Shown here: positions 29,588 through 36,729 of the stretch, piece by piece
Position numbering within the stretch: position 1 is the stretch's first letter
How the letters are laid out: every line of letters starts with the position of its first letter
Source: an uncultured Acidobacteriota bacterium
GTDB lineage: Bacteria > Acidobacteriota > Thermoanaerobaculia > UBA5066 > Gp7-AA6
DNA: 64,000 bases
Assembly: GCA_963764025.1 (NCBI GenBank)
Contig: CAVXRK010000011.1
Span: 320,999 to 384,998 of the forward strand
Reading direction: 5' to 3'
Translations under genes and position numbers: made by a program
The notes under the pieces: generated by a model
The model's input: only the letters and a program-made list of their open reading frames with translations
Told to the model about the DNA's origin: nothing
Databases searched by the model: none

Positions 29588-29962
29588 GCCTTGCCCGTCG
29601 CCCGAGCGCCAATCGACTTGCCCGTCGCCCGAGCGCCAATCGACTTGCCCGTCGCCCGAGCGTCGATCGACTTGGCACCCGCACGAGCGTCAATCGACTT
29701 GGCCCGTCGCCCGAGCGCCAATCGACTTGCCCGTCGCCCGAGCGCCAATCGACTTGCCCGTCGCCCGAGCGCCAATCGACTTGCCCGTCGCCCGAGCGCC
29801 AATCGACTTGCCCGTCGCCCGAGCGCCGATCGACTTGGCCCGTCGCCCGAGCGCCGATCGACTTGCCCGTCGCCCGAGCGCCAATCGACTTGCCCGTCGC
29901 CCGAGCGCCGATCGACTTGCCCGTCGCCCGAGCGCCAATCGACTTGCCCGTCGCCCGAGCCG
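29588..29962. repeat. 27-nt tandem direct repeat array, about 14 copies, unit CGACTTGCCCGTCGCCCGAGCGCCAAT, with a few 28-nt and variant units, inside a coding sequence
   Basis: Direct inspection. Units differ by A/G at one position. Two units are 28 nt (TTGGCCCG versus TTGCCCG). Confidence 0.95.
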
Positions 29963-30272: not shown

Positions 30273-31653
30273 TCAGAGCCCGTGCTTCCGGCAGAGATAC
30301 TTGATCTGGTTGGCGTCGAGCCCCAGGCGGCGAGCCGCTTCCGCCTTCACCCCGCCGGCCGCCGCGATCGCCTCCGCGAGCGTCCGGCGCTCGAAATCCT
30401 CGACGGCCGACGCGAAGTCGCGGACCGTGGATGCCCCGCCGCCCGCGGGAGCGCGCGGCGCCTCCCGGAGGGCCCGCGGAAGCTCCTCCTCGCCGATCTC
30501 GGGCGCGTCGGAAAAGAGGACGAGCATCTCGACGACGTGCTGGAGCTCGCGCACGTTGCCCTTCCACGCGTGGGCCCGAAGCCGGGCGAGGGCGCCCTCG
30601 GAGAAGCGGCGCCCGGTCTTCCCGTGCCGCTGCCCGAAGAGCGCCAGGAAATGGTCGGCGAGCAGCACGATGTCTTCCCCGCGTTCGCGCAACGGCGCGA
30701 TCCGGAGCGGAACGGTGTGGATCCGGTAAAACAGGTCCTCGCGGAACGTTCCGGCGGCGACCCGCGCTTCGAGGTCCTCGTTGGTGGCCGAAATCAGCCG
30801 GAAATCGACGGGGATCGGCCGCCGTCCGCCGACGCGCTCGACCACCCGGCTCTCGAGCACCCGGAGGAGCTTCGACTGCACCCCGGGCGAAAGTGTGCCG
30901 ATCTCGTCGAGGAAAATCGTTCCGCCCGAGGCGAGCTCGAACCGGCCGGGCCGCGATGCGATCGCGCCCGTGAAGGCGCCCTTCTCGTGGCCGAAGAGCT
31001 CCGCCTCGGCGAGCGACTCCGGCAGCGCCGAGGCGTTGACCGGCACGAATGCGCGGTCGCGCCGGGGGCTCGCGGCGTGGATCGACTGCGCGACGAGGTC
31101 CTTGCCCGTCCCGCTCTCCCCCGAGATGAGCACGGTCGCGTCGCTGCCGGCGACCCGCTCGATGTCGCGGGCCAGGGCGAGCATGGGCGCGCTCCGGCCG
31201 ATCAGCCGGTCGAGGGAGCGGGAGGGCTGGGCGGCCGCACGGAGCTCGCGGTTCTCGACGAGCAGCCGCCGGCGCTCGAGCGCGCGGTCGAGGATCAGGA
31301 GGAGCTCCGCCGTGTCGATCGGCTTCTGGAAGAAGTCGAAGGCGCCGAGCGCGACCGCCTGCAGCGCGTACTGCCGCTCCCCCTCTCCGGACATCATCAC
31401 GACCGTCGCCTCCGGGTCGCGCTCCCGCACGTAACGCAGCAGGTCGAGCCCCTCCTGCACCTGACCGGAGGGCGGCAGCCGCATGTCGAAGAGGTAGAGG
31501 TCCGGGTCCGAGGCGCAGAGCGCCCGGCCGTGGGTCGCGTCGCGGGCCGACGACACCGCGAACCGTCCCTTGAGCGCCCAGGTCAGCTGCTCGAGGAGAA
31601 AGGCGTCGTCCTCGACGATGACGATCCGTCCCAGGGGACGCGCCGGCTCGGTC
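30273..31653 (-). CDS. sigma54-dependent two-component response regulator (NtrC family: REC + AAA+ + Fis HTH)
   Basis: GTG start overlapping the kinase stop (GTGA). REC domain: RIVIVEDDAFLLEQL...DLYLFDMRLP. AAA+: GESGTGKD, GAFTGA, ELFGHEKG. C-terminal HTH: AEAARRLGLDANQIKYLCRKHGL. The listed ORF start is an upstream in-frame GTG. Confidence 0.85.
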
Positions 31654-33141: not shown

Positions 33142-33183
33142 GATATCGGAAAAACGACGAGATGCTATCGTTTACGAAGTCTC

Positions 33184-33528
33184 ATGTCGATCACCCTGGC
33201 GAGCGAATCCCCGTCCATCGAGCAGAAGGGTCTGCGGGCGAACTTCTCCTGGACCATGTCCGAGCCCTGGGACGAGCGCCGCCTCGCGGCCTTCCTGATG
33301 ACCAAGCACCGGAGGAGCGACTCGGACTGGACCCGCCGCCCGTCGCCCTTCTTCGCGTCTCTCGGGCAGGCCACCGTCGAGTGCTCGGTTCCCGTCGCCC
33401 GGCCGGAAGCCCTCCCCGACCTCGCCGCGATCCTGACGGTCGAGCTGACGGGTATCCTGACGGGGGCGAGCGCGATTTACGAGCAGATGGTGGCCGGCCA
33501 GGACTGGAAAACGGTCTCCCCGCCCTGA
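33184..33528 (+). CDS. hypothetical protein (114 aa) upstream of the DGQHR gene
   Basis: High GC3 and consistent codon usage (MSITLASESPSIEQKGLRANFSWTMSEPWDERRLAAFLMTKHRRSDSDW...). Same strand, 92 nt before the DGQHR ATG. Confidence 0.45.
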   Translation: MSITLASESPSIEQKGLRANFSWTMSEPWDERRLAAFLMTKHRRSDSDWTRRPSPFFASLGQATVECSVPVARPEALPDLAAILTVELTGILTGASAIYEQMVAGQDWKTVSPP

Positions 33529-33620
33529 AAAGGGCCCCGTTTCCGGCGGTCATTTCTCTAGGCTCCAAACCGCCCGACGGCGGTATACGCTTTCGCCGCC
33601 CGGGCCGAGGGACTTACCCG

Positions 33621-34784
33621 CCGGGCGACCCGGACGGCCAGGAGGTGACCATGATCTCGGTGCCCTCGCTTCGGCTGAACCAGTTTGGAGTGCGGTTCTA
33701 CGAGGCCCTGCTCTCGGGCGCGGACCTGCAGTCCCTGGTCGGCTTCGAAGTCCTGTCCTTCGGCCCCGGCAGCGAAACAACCCGCGGAAAGGCCGCCAAG
33801 AAGGCCCCTCACGGACGGGTCAACTGGGAGTTCCTCGAAAAGCGGATCTCGGCGTCCGAGCAGGCTTTCCAGCGGCCGATCATCAAGAAGAAGATCGACG
33901 AGCTCGTCACCTACTACCTCCAGTGCGCCGACTCCGGGACCCTTCCCGCCATCCCCGGCAGCGTTCTCCTCGTTTCGGAGAAGCGGCTCGAGTACGCCCC
34001 GTCGGGCGGCCGGTCCGACGCCGGCTCGCTCAAGCTCCCGGAGGAGTCCGGCATCCTCCGGGCGCTCGACGGGCAGCACCGCCTCCTTGCCCTCCACCAG
34101 CTCGCCGAGAAGCACAGCCTGCGGGACTTCCAGGTGCCGGCCGTCGTGTTCGACAACCTGACGCCCGACCAGGTCGTCGAGCTCTTCGTGACGATCAACA
34201 GCAAGCACACGAAGCTGAACCCGTCGCACCTGATCTCGCTCGCCGGCCGGCGCCTCTACCGCGACGACAACCTCGCGGCCGCCCACGACGTCGTCCGGAC
34301 GCTCAACGAGGACGAGGGCTCGCCGCTGAAGGGCTCGATCAAGGTCCTCGGCATCGGCAAGGGCACGGTGACCCAGGCCTCGCTCGCCGACGAGCTGCGC
34401 GACGTGTTCGCCGCGATCGACACCGCCGGCGGGCGCGTGGCCCGGGAGTTCCGCGAGAACGCCCGCCGCTTCTTCCTGAACTACTTCAAGGCCGCCGCCC
34501 GGGCCTTCCCCGCGGCCTTCGCCGGACGCAAGTACTCGATCAAGAGCTCGACGTCGCTGCGCGCCTTCATCCGCATCGTCCCGTACGTGATCGCGATGGT
34601 CCGCAAGCGGGGCGGCGACGTCTGGTCCGCCGGCGAGCTCGACGCGGCGCTGCGCCCGTGGGCCGAGGCGATCGGCGACCGCCGCTTCGAGACCGACACC
34701 GTCTGGAAGGAAAAGCTGACGGGCGGAACGCGGTCCGGGGTCGAGATTCTGGCGCGGGAGCTGCGCCAGGGTCTGAACACCTGA
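33621..34784 (+). CDS. DGQHR-domain protein (DndB-like, ParB/Srx nuclease superfamily)
   Basis: AGGAGG SD. Hallmark LRALDGQHRLLALHQLAE motif. 387 aa. No dndACDE genes nearby. Confidence 0.75.
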   Translation, partial: PGDPDGQEVTMISVPSLRLNQFGVRFYEALLSGADLQSLVGFEVLSFGPGSETTRGKAAKKAPHGRVNWEFLEKRISASEQAFQRPIIKKKIDELVTYYLQCADSGTLPAIPGSVLLVSEKRLEYAPSGGRSDAGSLKLPEESGILRALDGQHRLLALHQLAEKHSLRDFQVPAVVFDNLTPDQVVELFVTINSKHTKLNPSHLISLAGRRLYRDDNLAAAHDVVRTLNEDEGSPLKGSIKVLGIGKGTVTQASLADELRDVFAAIDTAGGRVAREFRENARRFFLNYFKAAARAFPAAFAGRKYSIKSSTSLRAFIRIVPYVIAMVRKRGGDVWSAGELDAALRPWAEAIGDRRFETDTVWKEKLTGGTRSGVEILARELRQGLNT

Positions 34785-36438: not shown

Positions 36439-36729
36439 TCAATCGAGGTCGATGTCGCGAACGGGCTTCGAGGTGTCGCCCTTCGTCTTCTCGAACAGCT
36501 CCTGGAACTTGCGGTTGAGGACTTCCTTCTTCGACTTCTCCGCTTCGACGGAGGCCGCGAACTTCTTCTCGCGCTCCTCGTCCTGGCCCTTGAGAGCCCC
36601 GATCGCGTCGTCGACCGAGCCGAACTTGCGCGGGACCTTCGGCGCCTCGTGGGCGACGACCGCCTTGAGGTCGGCGTCGACCTTGAGGCGCGCGTTGCAG
36701 CAGGGGCAGAGAACGTCGAAATCCATCAC
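36439..36729 (-). CDS. small zinc-ribbon-like hypothetical protein (CPCC, Lys/Glu-rich tail)
   Basis: MMDFDVLCPCCNARLKVDADLKAVVAHE.... Uniformly high GC3 codon usage argues for a real gene. Confidence 0.5.
   Translation of the reverse strand: MMDFDVLCPCCNARLKVDADLKAVVAHEAPKVPRKFGSVDDAIGALKGQDEEREKKFAASVEAEKSKKEVLNRKFQELFEKTKGDTSKPVRDIDLD

Follow-up and report, generated by a model that had tools for sequence, protein, structure and literature searches.

To our knowledge, DndB and DpdB are so far the only known forms of proteins carrying a DGQHR domain; both serve DNA-modification defence systems, which they regulate or assist. The domain is marked by a near-invariant DGQHR pentapeptide, accompanied by the residue pair QR, together with the motif FxxxN (PMC4619093). 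Repression by DndB is modulated by ATP, and both ATP and GTP are ligands of a DndB-like protein (bioRxiv 10.1101/2025.10.10.680097). DpdB is a homodimeric ATPase, the helical C-terminal domains of which enclose a basic tunnel of the size of DNA; the DGQQR motif of SspE is needed for nucleoside triphosphatase (NTPase) activity, and is equivalent to the nucleotide-binding motif GxxRxxA of ParB (PMC10164549). This work deals with a gene encoding a DGQHR protein, located in a stretch of 64,000 nucleotides (hereafter the window, meaning the whole stretch analysed) of contig CAVXRK010000011.1 (assembly GCA_963764025.1) from an uncultured Acidobacteriota bacterium of the class Thermoanaerobaculia, and with the small open reading frame (ORF) which precedes it. 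The original prediction, made by reading the sequence, had taken the gene for an orphan of the DndB kind, and the two genes together for a possible standalone nucleic-acid-targeting or defence module. The results reported here sustain the former view and not the latter. The DGQHR gene represents a distinct stand-alone subfamily, of about 375 amino acids (aa), within a known kind of protein, and its cellular role is not assigned.

The reading as a DGQHR-domain, DndB-like protein, probably of the ParB/Srx superfamily, is borne out by a full-length check against the TIGR03187 (DGQHR domain) profile. The match scores 118.8 bits versus a cutoff of 58.85 (E = 3.6e-34), and the alignment spans positions 2-274 of the 276 of the profile, and residues 7-312 of the protein, the QR, DGQHR and FxxxN motifs included. 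Pfam PF14072, named 'DndB', is also matched above its cutoff (50.3 bits versus 29.1). TIGR03187 and PF14072 describe a family at the level of the domain, without an assigned function, and the window protein falls into a stand-alone subfamily within it. Scores are quite different when equivalog models are considered. TIGR03233 (DndB) yields 28.8 bits versus a cutoff of 328, with only residues 63-192 aligned, and NF041060 (DpdB) 41.5 bits versus a cutoff of 300, residues 71-290 being aligned to positions 44-268 of the 352 of the profile. The matches to the PADLOC models are likewise both sub-threshold (DpdB, E = 5.7e-11, 39.8 bits; DndB, E = 2e-7, partial). The protein is a member of a stand-alone DGQHR subfamily, probably within the ParB/Srx superfamily, and an orthologue of neither DndB nor DpdB. 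Its length is 377 aa, and not 387 aa as formerly assigned: position 33621, where the longer reading would begin, holds no start codon, and homologues share the start M[IL]SVPSL and range in length from 374 to 379 aa. The strong Shine-Dalgarno (SD) sequence previously noticed is genuine, and an SD-like sequence is found at no more than 20 nt from the DGQHR start in all the 76 related loci.

DndB belongs to the same superfamily as the window protein and has a similar length, and its ATP-modulated repression exerted through DNA binding is the kind of action proposed here; yet, the score is far below the equivalog cutoff, and dndA, dndC, dndD and dndE are all missing near the window gene. DpdB is the best-scoring characterised relative, and the model of the window protein reproduces its two-domain layout, made of a ParB-fold N-terminal domain and a helical C-terminal domain. 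However, DpdB carries DGQQR in place of DGQHR, and no dpdA or tRNA-guanine transglycosylase (TGT)-like gene is adjacent to the window gene. Neither dpdA nor dpdC occurs in the flanks of the window gene or of the related loci, and the genes recognised around DGQHR in the related loci checked are all ordinary chromosomal ones. SspE and GmrSD (DUF262-DUF1524) exhibit weak similarity to the N-terminal region, and have in common with the window protein the DGQ(H/Q)R NTPase motif, but the DUF1524/HNH domain (searched with Pfam) and the EHxxP motif (searched in the sequence) are both absent from the latter. The original prediction spoke of a nuclease fold, which is overstated, because the protein has no nuclease motif of the SspE/GmrSD type. 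The CTP-dependent clamps ParB, Noc and PadC also feature a GxxRxxA-type motif at a strand-to-helix junction; similarity is limited to the superfamily level, and there is no parA near the window gene. Neither a helix-turn-helix/parS-binding domain nor the C-terminal dimerisation domain of ParB was detected in the DGQHR protein, which also lacks the catalytic cysteine of sulfiredoxins, as it reads GQHR and not GCHR.

Relatives of the DGQHR protein were monitored by taking one genome per species, and are present in 183 genomes; the best 80 of the 183 exhibit 83-99% identity to the window protein. The nearest relative (99% identity) is encoded by the metagenome-assembled genome MFD05942.bin.1.319, and all the close homologues (73-93% identity) for which an organism name is available come from Thermoanaerobaculia or Acidobacteriota. 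The order small ORF–DGQHR–LemA–M48 is kept in about 75 Thermoanaerobaculia species genomes, and is maintained even in about 10 loci which lack the HlyD, kinase and regulator genes further upstream. Both DGQHR and the small ORF are stably inherited chromosomal genes of a single lineage of soil bacteria. No gene of the neighbourhood is as conserved as DGQHR, the median identity of which to the window protein is 87.8%; the medians of the scanned neighbours range overall from 46 to 83% (LemA, 83%; a 96-aa ORF, 81%; small ORF, 75%; M48 peptidase and S4-domain protein, both 72%; histidine kinase, 71%; HlyD-type protein, 70%; EAL protein, 58%). DGQHR surpasses each scanned neighbour in all loci, or in all loci but one, the small ORF making two exceptions. 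The ratio of nonsynonymous to synonymous substitution rates (dN/dS), calculated versus the window gene, is about 0.10. Because of this low ratio, and of a degree of conservation unsurpassed in the neighbourhood, the DGQHR gene is best described as a vertically inherited, strongly constrained gene, and not as a defence-island gene. Viral contigs hold no close relative, the best matches being only 22-30% identical.

The surroundings tell the same story. The search for defence genes and known families covered 10 flanking ORFs of the window, from about 24.9 to 39.8 kb. Upstream of the small ORF, on the minus strand, lie genes for a HlyD-type membrane-fusion protein, a histidine kinase and a sigma-54 response regulator; downstream of DGQHR are found LemA, an M48 peptidase, an ORF of about 95-96 aa, an S4-domain protein, an EAL protein and a PMT_2 glycosyltransferase. 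The membrane-fusion protein and LemA had been correctly recognized at the outset as flanking genes, and so had the orphan condition of the gene: dnd genes (DndACDE), dpd genes (DpdA) and restriction genes are all missing from the 10 ORFs, and PADLOC returned no defence match for these neighbours apart from generic AAA+ similarity. The 'RtcR' matches of the sigma-54 response regulator are of this generic kind, and were discarded. Of the features by which a defence-island gene can be told, defence neighbours are not observed for the DGQHR gene, synteny is stable and not that of mobile DNA, and the relatives on viral contigs are limited to 22-30% identity.

In an alignment of 56 sequences covering two families, which share just 26-31% identity, the QR pair Q74-R75, the stretch D140-R144, and the residues F179 and N183 of the motif F179xxxN183 are invariant. 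The pattern G141-x-x-R144-x-x-A147 corresponds to Box II of ParB. In the AlphaFold2 (AF2) model of the protein (predicted local distance difference test, pLDDT, 74; predicted template modelling score, pTM, 0.50), an alpha/beta N-terminal domain is followed by an all-helical, basic C-terminal domain, and the DGQHR motif is located at a strand-to-helix junction. A basic loop at residues ~36-58 is modelled with low confidence. The top meaningful Foldseek match of the model is PadC (probability 0.66), and SspE is also listed. The protein matches, in addition, a PHROG family of ParB-like partition proteins (E = 3e-5), and, below the cutoff of 33.2 bits, Pfam GmrSD_N (20.9 bits, E = 4e-4). Searching the sequences of the Protein Data Bank (PDB) with the family profile retrieved nothing at E <= 1. 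Taken together, the links to the ParB fold provided by GmrSD_N, PHROG and Foldseek are weak but consistent.

The explanation that best accounts for these data, to which we would assign a probability of roughly 0.55, is that the window hosts two separately transcribed, vertically inherited Thermoanaerobaculia genes, and that the DGQHR gene encodes a chromosomal DNA-binding protein gated by nucleoside triphosphates (NTPs). The mode of action may be figured out from the characterised relatives. The N-terminal domain, by means of Q74-R75, G141xxR144xxA147 and F179xxxN183, would bind and slowly hydrolyse an NTP, and would control the closure of a dimer; DNA would be held by the C-terminal domain, which is helical and basic. 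Such a switch would plausibly regulate or organise chromosomal DNA, and neither cleave nor modify it. A core cellular role is favored over anti-phage defence because conservation is extreme and the genomic position is fixed. Several points weigh against this explanation. The presence of the gene in 183 species genomes does not prove that it is universal in the class. For the conserved loop 183-203, with its invariant residues T187, S192 and H193, the confidence of the prediction is low. A clade of homologues at 45% identity (loci L089-L094) sits inside type I-G CRISPR-Cas loci; since this sister clade is CRISPR-Cas-linked, the DGQHR family is not intrinsically a housekeeping one. A role coupled in trans to some defence or modification system, located at another place in the genome, retains a small probability. 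Coordinates of the relevant features are given in Table 1.

Table 1. Location of genes, signals and repeats in the window, and of CRISPR-linked relatives (window positions, or positions within the related loci, designated by L numbers).
Feature	Position	Strand	Remarks
Extended -10-like element TGCTATCGT	33163-33171	+	12 nt upstream of the small-ORF start ATG; putative promoter function
Small ORF, 114 aa	33184-33528	+	acidic, isoelectric point (pI) 5.3; lineage-restricted, function not assigned
Weak terminator-like hairpin and T-rich run	33537-33549	+	just past the stop of the small ORF; from consensus scan, 5 pairs
-10-like hexamer TATACG	33584-33589	+	61 nt before the DGQHR start; candidate separate promoter of DGQHR
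SD sequence AGGAGG of DGQHR gene	33640-33645	+	5 nt before the ATG at 33651
DGQHR-domain protein gene	33651-34784	+	377 aa, basic, pI 9.7; matches TIGR03187 and PF14072
Codons for D140-G-Q-H-R144	34068-34082	+	with A147, GxxRxxA, nucleotide-binding motif of ParB Box II type
96-aa ORF	36439-36729	-	downstream of the M48 gene
Tandem array, 27-bp unit CTTGCCCGTCGCCCGAGCGCCAATCGA	29590-29960		13.7 copies, 93% match
Type I-G-linked DGQHR loci	L089:5920-11590; L094:5914-13624; L090:456-8139; L091:1571-8062; L092:1-5846		

The type I-G-linked homologues are full-length, and about 45% identical to the window protein. They map between a WYL regulator and the cas3g and cas8g genes, and a small protein, translationally coupled to DGQHR, is encoded downstream; in contrast, neither WYL nor cas genes are found in the window. 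The gene order is WYL regulator, DGQHR, small protein of 150-220 aa, cas3g, cas8g (csx17), the WYL regulator being present in four of the five loci for which upstream sequence is available. PADLOC identified cas3g with E = 1e-213, and cas8g/csx17 with E = 4e-191. In L090, L091 and L094 the start of the small protein overlaps the stop codon of DGQHR. This protein displays an N-terminal helix with the conserved sequence AYExGYREAL, as well as a C-terminal motif which reads ...RFxxDVxxCRKGDxxRRQLK, and differs from the 114-aa protein of the window. CRISPR arrays were not found in the flanks fetched for these loci. The CRISPR-linked clade is, in a neighbour-joining tree, the sister of the clade which includes the window gene, and a keyword search of the literature found no description of such an arrangement. 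It is conceivable, and we advance it tentatively, that the window gene belongs to the chromosomal branch of a DGQHR family not described before, a branch of highly constrained NTP-switch DNA-binding proteins exerting a core role in Thermoanaerobaculia and Methylomirabilota, as for example in nucleoid organisation or global regulation, and that the sister branch is an unreported accessory module of type I-G systems, made of the WYL regulator, the DGQHR protein and its coupled small protein, and located upstream of cas3g.

A wider picture of the family emerged when 1.84 billion representative proteins were searched exhaustively; only 972 sequences were retrieved at E <= 0.001. Few of them are full-length; their identities to the window protein are 54, 51, 45, 44 and 38%, and a sister family comes next, at about 33%. 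A clade at 75% identity, still in Thermoanaerobaculia, lies in a different place, beside genes for Ser/Thr kinases and without the small ORF. In the 54-60% clade, the 54% representative of which comes from Methylomirabilota, the gene is convergent with greA in 39 loci, and is close to ppiD. Members of the 51% clade are flanked by a membrane acyltransferase-like gene on one side and by a LamB/YcsF-like gene on the other, both assigned by eye. The window subfamily has thus been found in Thermoanaerobaculia and Methylomirabilota. The ~33% sister family occurs in Nitrospirota, Thermoplasmatota and one Acidoferrales genome, where the gene stands alone amid housekeeping genes. Neighbours were judged by homology and clustering, and dnd, dpd and cas genes were missing within 7-8 kb in all the ~160 loci of the clades found in a housekeeping context. 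In two Nitrospirota genomes (L084:5549-9855 and L175:4502-10067) the sister-family gene is part of a queG–DGQHR–…–thiI order. The queG gene (epoxyqueuosine reductase) is divergent, one to three small genes precede thiI (tRNA 4-thiouridine synthase), and a sigma-54 regulator is located beyond queG. This placement may represent plain synteny, though both flanking genes are nucleoside-modification genes. In one Thermoplasmata genome the sister-family gene follows an XPD-like helicase gene.

The small ORF is a genuine conserved gene, and in this respect the earlier description of a 114-aa ORF with good codon usage was correct. The G+C content at third codon positions (GC3) is 0.93, dN/dS is about 0.19, and homologues form 280 protein clusters, nearly all 114 aa in length. 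The ORF, with its ATG start, is intact at 114 aa in 69 of the 76 related loci, and measures 112-116 aa in four more. It lies directly upstream of DGQHR, at 58-99% identity, in all the 76 window-clade loci which reach far enough upstream. In L001/L077 (7582-7974; one contig fetched twice) the ORF reads 130 aa, and in L026 (7494-7910) 138 aa; these are MFD assemblies. A frameshift or an assembly error is suspected in L001, because the DNA can still be aligned to that of the window after the frame is lost. The small protein matches no family in Pfam, NCBIfam, PADLOC or PHROGs, and a profile search of PDB sequences gave only noise. The AF2 model (pLDDT 86, pTM 0.78) is confident, and depicts a beta-beta-alpha-beta-beta-long alpha arrangement. 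Foldseek matches are weak, none reaching E <= 0.001. The best one is 1xkp_B, a chain of the SycN-YscB chaperone (E = 0.012, TM 0.49), and DR_1245, SycE, Spa15 and AvrPphF-ORF1 are further weak matches.

The small ORF and DGQHR are probably two transcription units, as judged from the signals found in the DNA. A TGnTAnnnT element, of which TGCTATCGT is the version in the window, occurs in 73 of 75 related loci, versus 2.7 expected from shuffles, and is placed at -21±2 from the ATG with which the small ORF begins. Only 3 of 76 loci have an SD-like sequence ahead of the small ORF. Because the -10-like element is close to the ATG, and no SD sequence follows it, the mRNA of the small ORF is suggested to be leaderless, or to carry a very short leader. 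A terminator-like signal may be present past the stop codon. Consensus scanning detected two such sites versus 1.4 expected, a figure which taken by itself lacks significance; on visual inspection, the closest loci repeatedly show, after the stop of the small ORF, short GC hairpins with ATTTCTCT behind them. In the spacer, a TATA[AC][TCG] hexamer is present in 74 of 76 loci, versus 3.6 expected, 23-102 nt before the ATG of DGQHR, and has the form TATAAT in more distant subclades. The length of the spacer ranges across loci from 26 to 968 bp. Search of a profile of the small protein against 8,523 ORFs located around all other DGQHR relatives gave no match (best E = 0.62). With a variable spacer, separate -10-like elements, and a small ORF missing from the other clades, the two genes do not look like parts of an operon. 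As the promoter-like elements are separate, the spacer is variable, and the small gene is absent outside the clade, the link between the two genes rests on synteny only, and they are not more strongly associated with each other than with LemA and M48.

Some features of the spacer and of the leaders merit mention. The spacer is expanded to 320-970 bp in L066 (7033-8000), L078 (7250-8000), L059, L061, L064 and L071. The extra DNA in L066 and L078 consists of short GC-rich repeats, resembling repetitive extragenic palindromes (REP) or miniature inverted-repeat transposable elements (MITE), with no credible gene; insertion of genes into these long spacers was accordingly ruled out in favor of repeat expansion. 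Rfam recognised no known RNA in the leaders or spacers of either the window or L063. A conserved TCTCnTGGCTC block located upstream of the -10 box of DGQHR was inspected by eye as a potential sigma-54 -24/-12 promoter, and was rejected, since the GG-GC spacing is wrong and TTGC is missing. In the subclade formed by L056 (7907-8006), L058, L062, L063, L067, L070, L072, L079 and L081, DGQHR is preceded by a conserved leader of about 100 nt (…GACGGGAGCGGCCGTTCCAAGCCGTTCCGCCGGCGGGACTTAGCCGGAGGGCGGCAGAGGAGG), running from the TATAAT box to the start codon, which could be a cis-regulatory RNA. The leader of the window gene (33590-33650) is shorter, and variable among close relatives. In L036-L038, L041, L044-L055 and L074-L083 about 30 nt before the DGQHR start, a perfect TATAAT box is immediately followed by a C-run, an A-rich stretch, and a G-run which also serves as the SD sequence, as exemplified by TATAATgCCCCCgcgaaaaGGGGGGtcaggATG. 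This arrangement may be a GC-rich discriminator, or else a small hairpin covering the ribosome-binding site. The idea of a hairpin sequestering the SD sequence is weakened by the position of the C-run, which falls within the discriminator region and probably precedes the start of transcription.

Other explanations of the locus have been considered. The DGQHR protein could work in trans for a phosphorothioate, 7-deazaguanine or CRISPR-Cas system encoded elsewhere, either sensing NTPs and repressing that system in the manner of DndB, or helping it as an ATPase in the manner of DpdB. DndB and DpdB play such roles in cis, the sister clade is tied to WYL regulators and Cas3g, and the sister-family gene found between queG and thiI in two Nitrospirota genomes goes in the same direction; that adjacency is, however, confined to one phylum. 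Moreover, regulators and helpers are normally encoded within their own system, yet none of the ~160 loci mentioned above shows dnd, dpd or cas genes nearby, and the conservation of DGQHR is above that expected for the partner of systems distributed in a patchy manner. This explanation is therefore deemed unlikely. Less credit is given to the hypothesis from which the analysis started, that the small ORF and DGQHR are a stand-alone anti-phage, or nucleic-acid-targeting, module. It draws on the occurrence of DGQHR/DUF262-type domains in the Dnd, Dpd, Ssp and GmrSD defence systems, and on the location of the nearest sister clade inside type I-G CRISPR-Cas loci. Fixed synteny across about 75 species, with DGQHR as the top conserved gene and a dN/dS of about 0.1, argues to the contrary, as do the non-defence neighbours, the lack of close viral relatives and of a nuclease motif, and PADLOC similarities to DpdB and DndB that stay below threshold. 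Orthologues consistently reside, in essence, in housekeeping surroundings, an outcome that the original prediction itself had indicated as adverse to the defence view. The small ORF, in turn, has a promoter-like element of its own, and is missing near every other clade. A defence module is, on the whole, highly improbable.

The partnership of the two genes deserves separate consideration. The small acidic protein, with a fold like that of secretion chaperones, could act as an antagonist or a chaperone, binding the basic DGQHR protein and either masking or delivering it, the two forming an obligate pair in the manner of toxin-antitoxin modules. Adjacency in 76 of 76 loci, kept even where the genes located further upstream differ, the complementary charges (pI 5.3 versus 9.7), and the nature of the best Foldseek matches, which are type III secretion chaperones and DR_1245, all fit such a pair; but the structural matches are weak (the best having the E of 0.012 and the TM of 0.49 reported above), the promoter-like elements are separate, and the spacer, variable from 26 to 968 bp, contains repeats. 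Furthermore, DGQHR is kept without a nearby homologue of the small ORF in the 75%, 54-60%, 51% and 45% clades as well as in the sister family, and LemA and M48 are equally syntenic, so that adjacency may be plain synteny. What survives of the partner proposed by the original prediction is the constant adjacency within the window clade; the promoter-like element, the spacer and the absence from other clades do not favor a partner proper. An obligate pair appears quite improbable, and the binding of the acidic small protein to the basic DGQHR protein is speculative. It could finally be imagined that the ParB/Srx fold serves here an enzyme which does not act on DNA, being sulfiredoxin-like or kinase-like, and directed to a protein or a small molecule. 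The fold has indeed been recruited for the reduction of sulfinic acids and for other NTP-dependent chemistry. However, the protein reads GQHR, without the sulfiredoxin cysteine, is strongly basic throughout, and finds its best profile matches (DGQHR, DpdB, DndB, GmrSD_N, phage ParB) all among DNA-associated families, and this possibility is regarded as very remote. An NTP-gated DNA-binding chromosomal protein, encoded next to an independently transcribed small gene, is the explanation retained.

Two more features of the neighbourhood were noticed. The 96-aa ORF located downstream of the M48 gene is 66-98% identical, and syntenic, in 71 related loci. It has no match in Pfam or PADLOC, and is another real uncharacterised small gene. 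The tandem array reported in Table 1 lies within the gap that runs from about 29.4 kb to position 30273, where the sigma-54 regulator gene ends; long ORFs are listed across the array, but they are artefacts of the repeats.

As far as the window is concerned, the outcome of this work is mostly corrective, in that two conserved genes without an assigned function take the place of a defence module. More generally, a sizeable subfamily of DGQHR proteins, distributed across phyla, stands alone at stable chromosomal positions under very strong purifying selection, which suggests that cells put the ParB-fold NTP switch to a use not yet studied. Caution is called for in annotation, as orphan DGQHR genes should not be assigned to defence by association. 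The sister clade linked to type I-G systems would provide, in turn, a concrete lead for work on CRISPR accessory genes. If the existence of a chromosomal branch and of a CRISPR branch turned out to be true, DGQHR proteins would have a role outside phosphorothioate and 7-deazaguanine modification, and the family would be a case in which defence and housekeeping functions have been exchanged.

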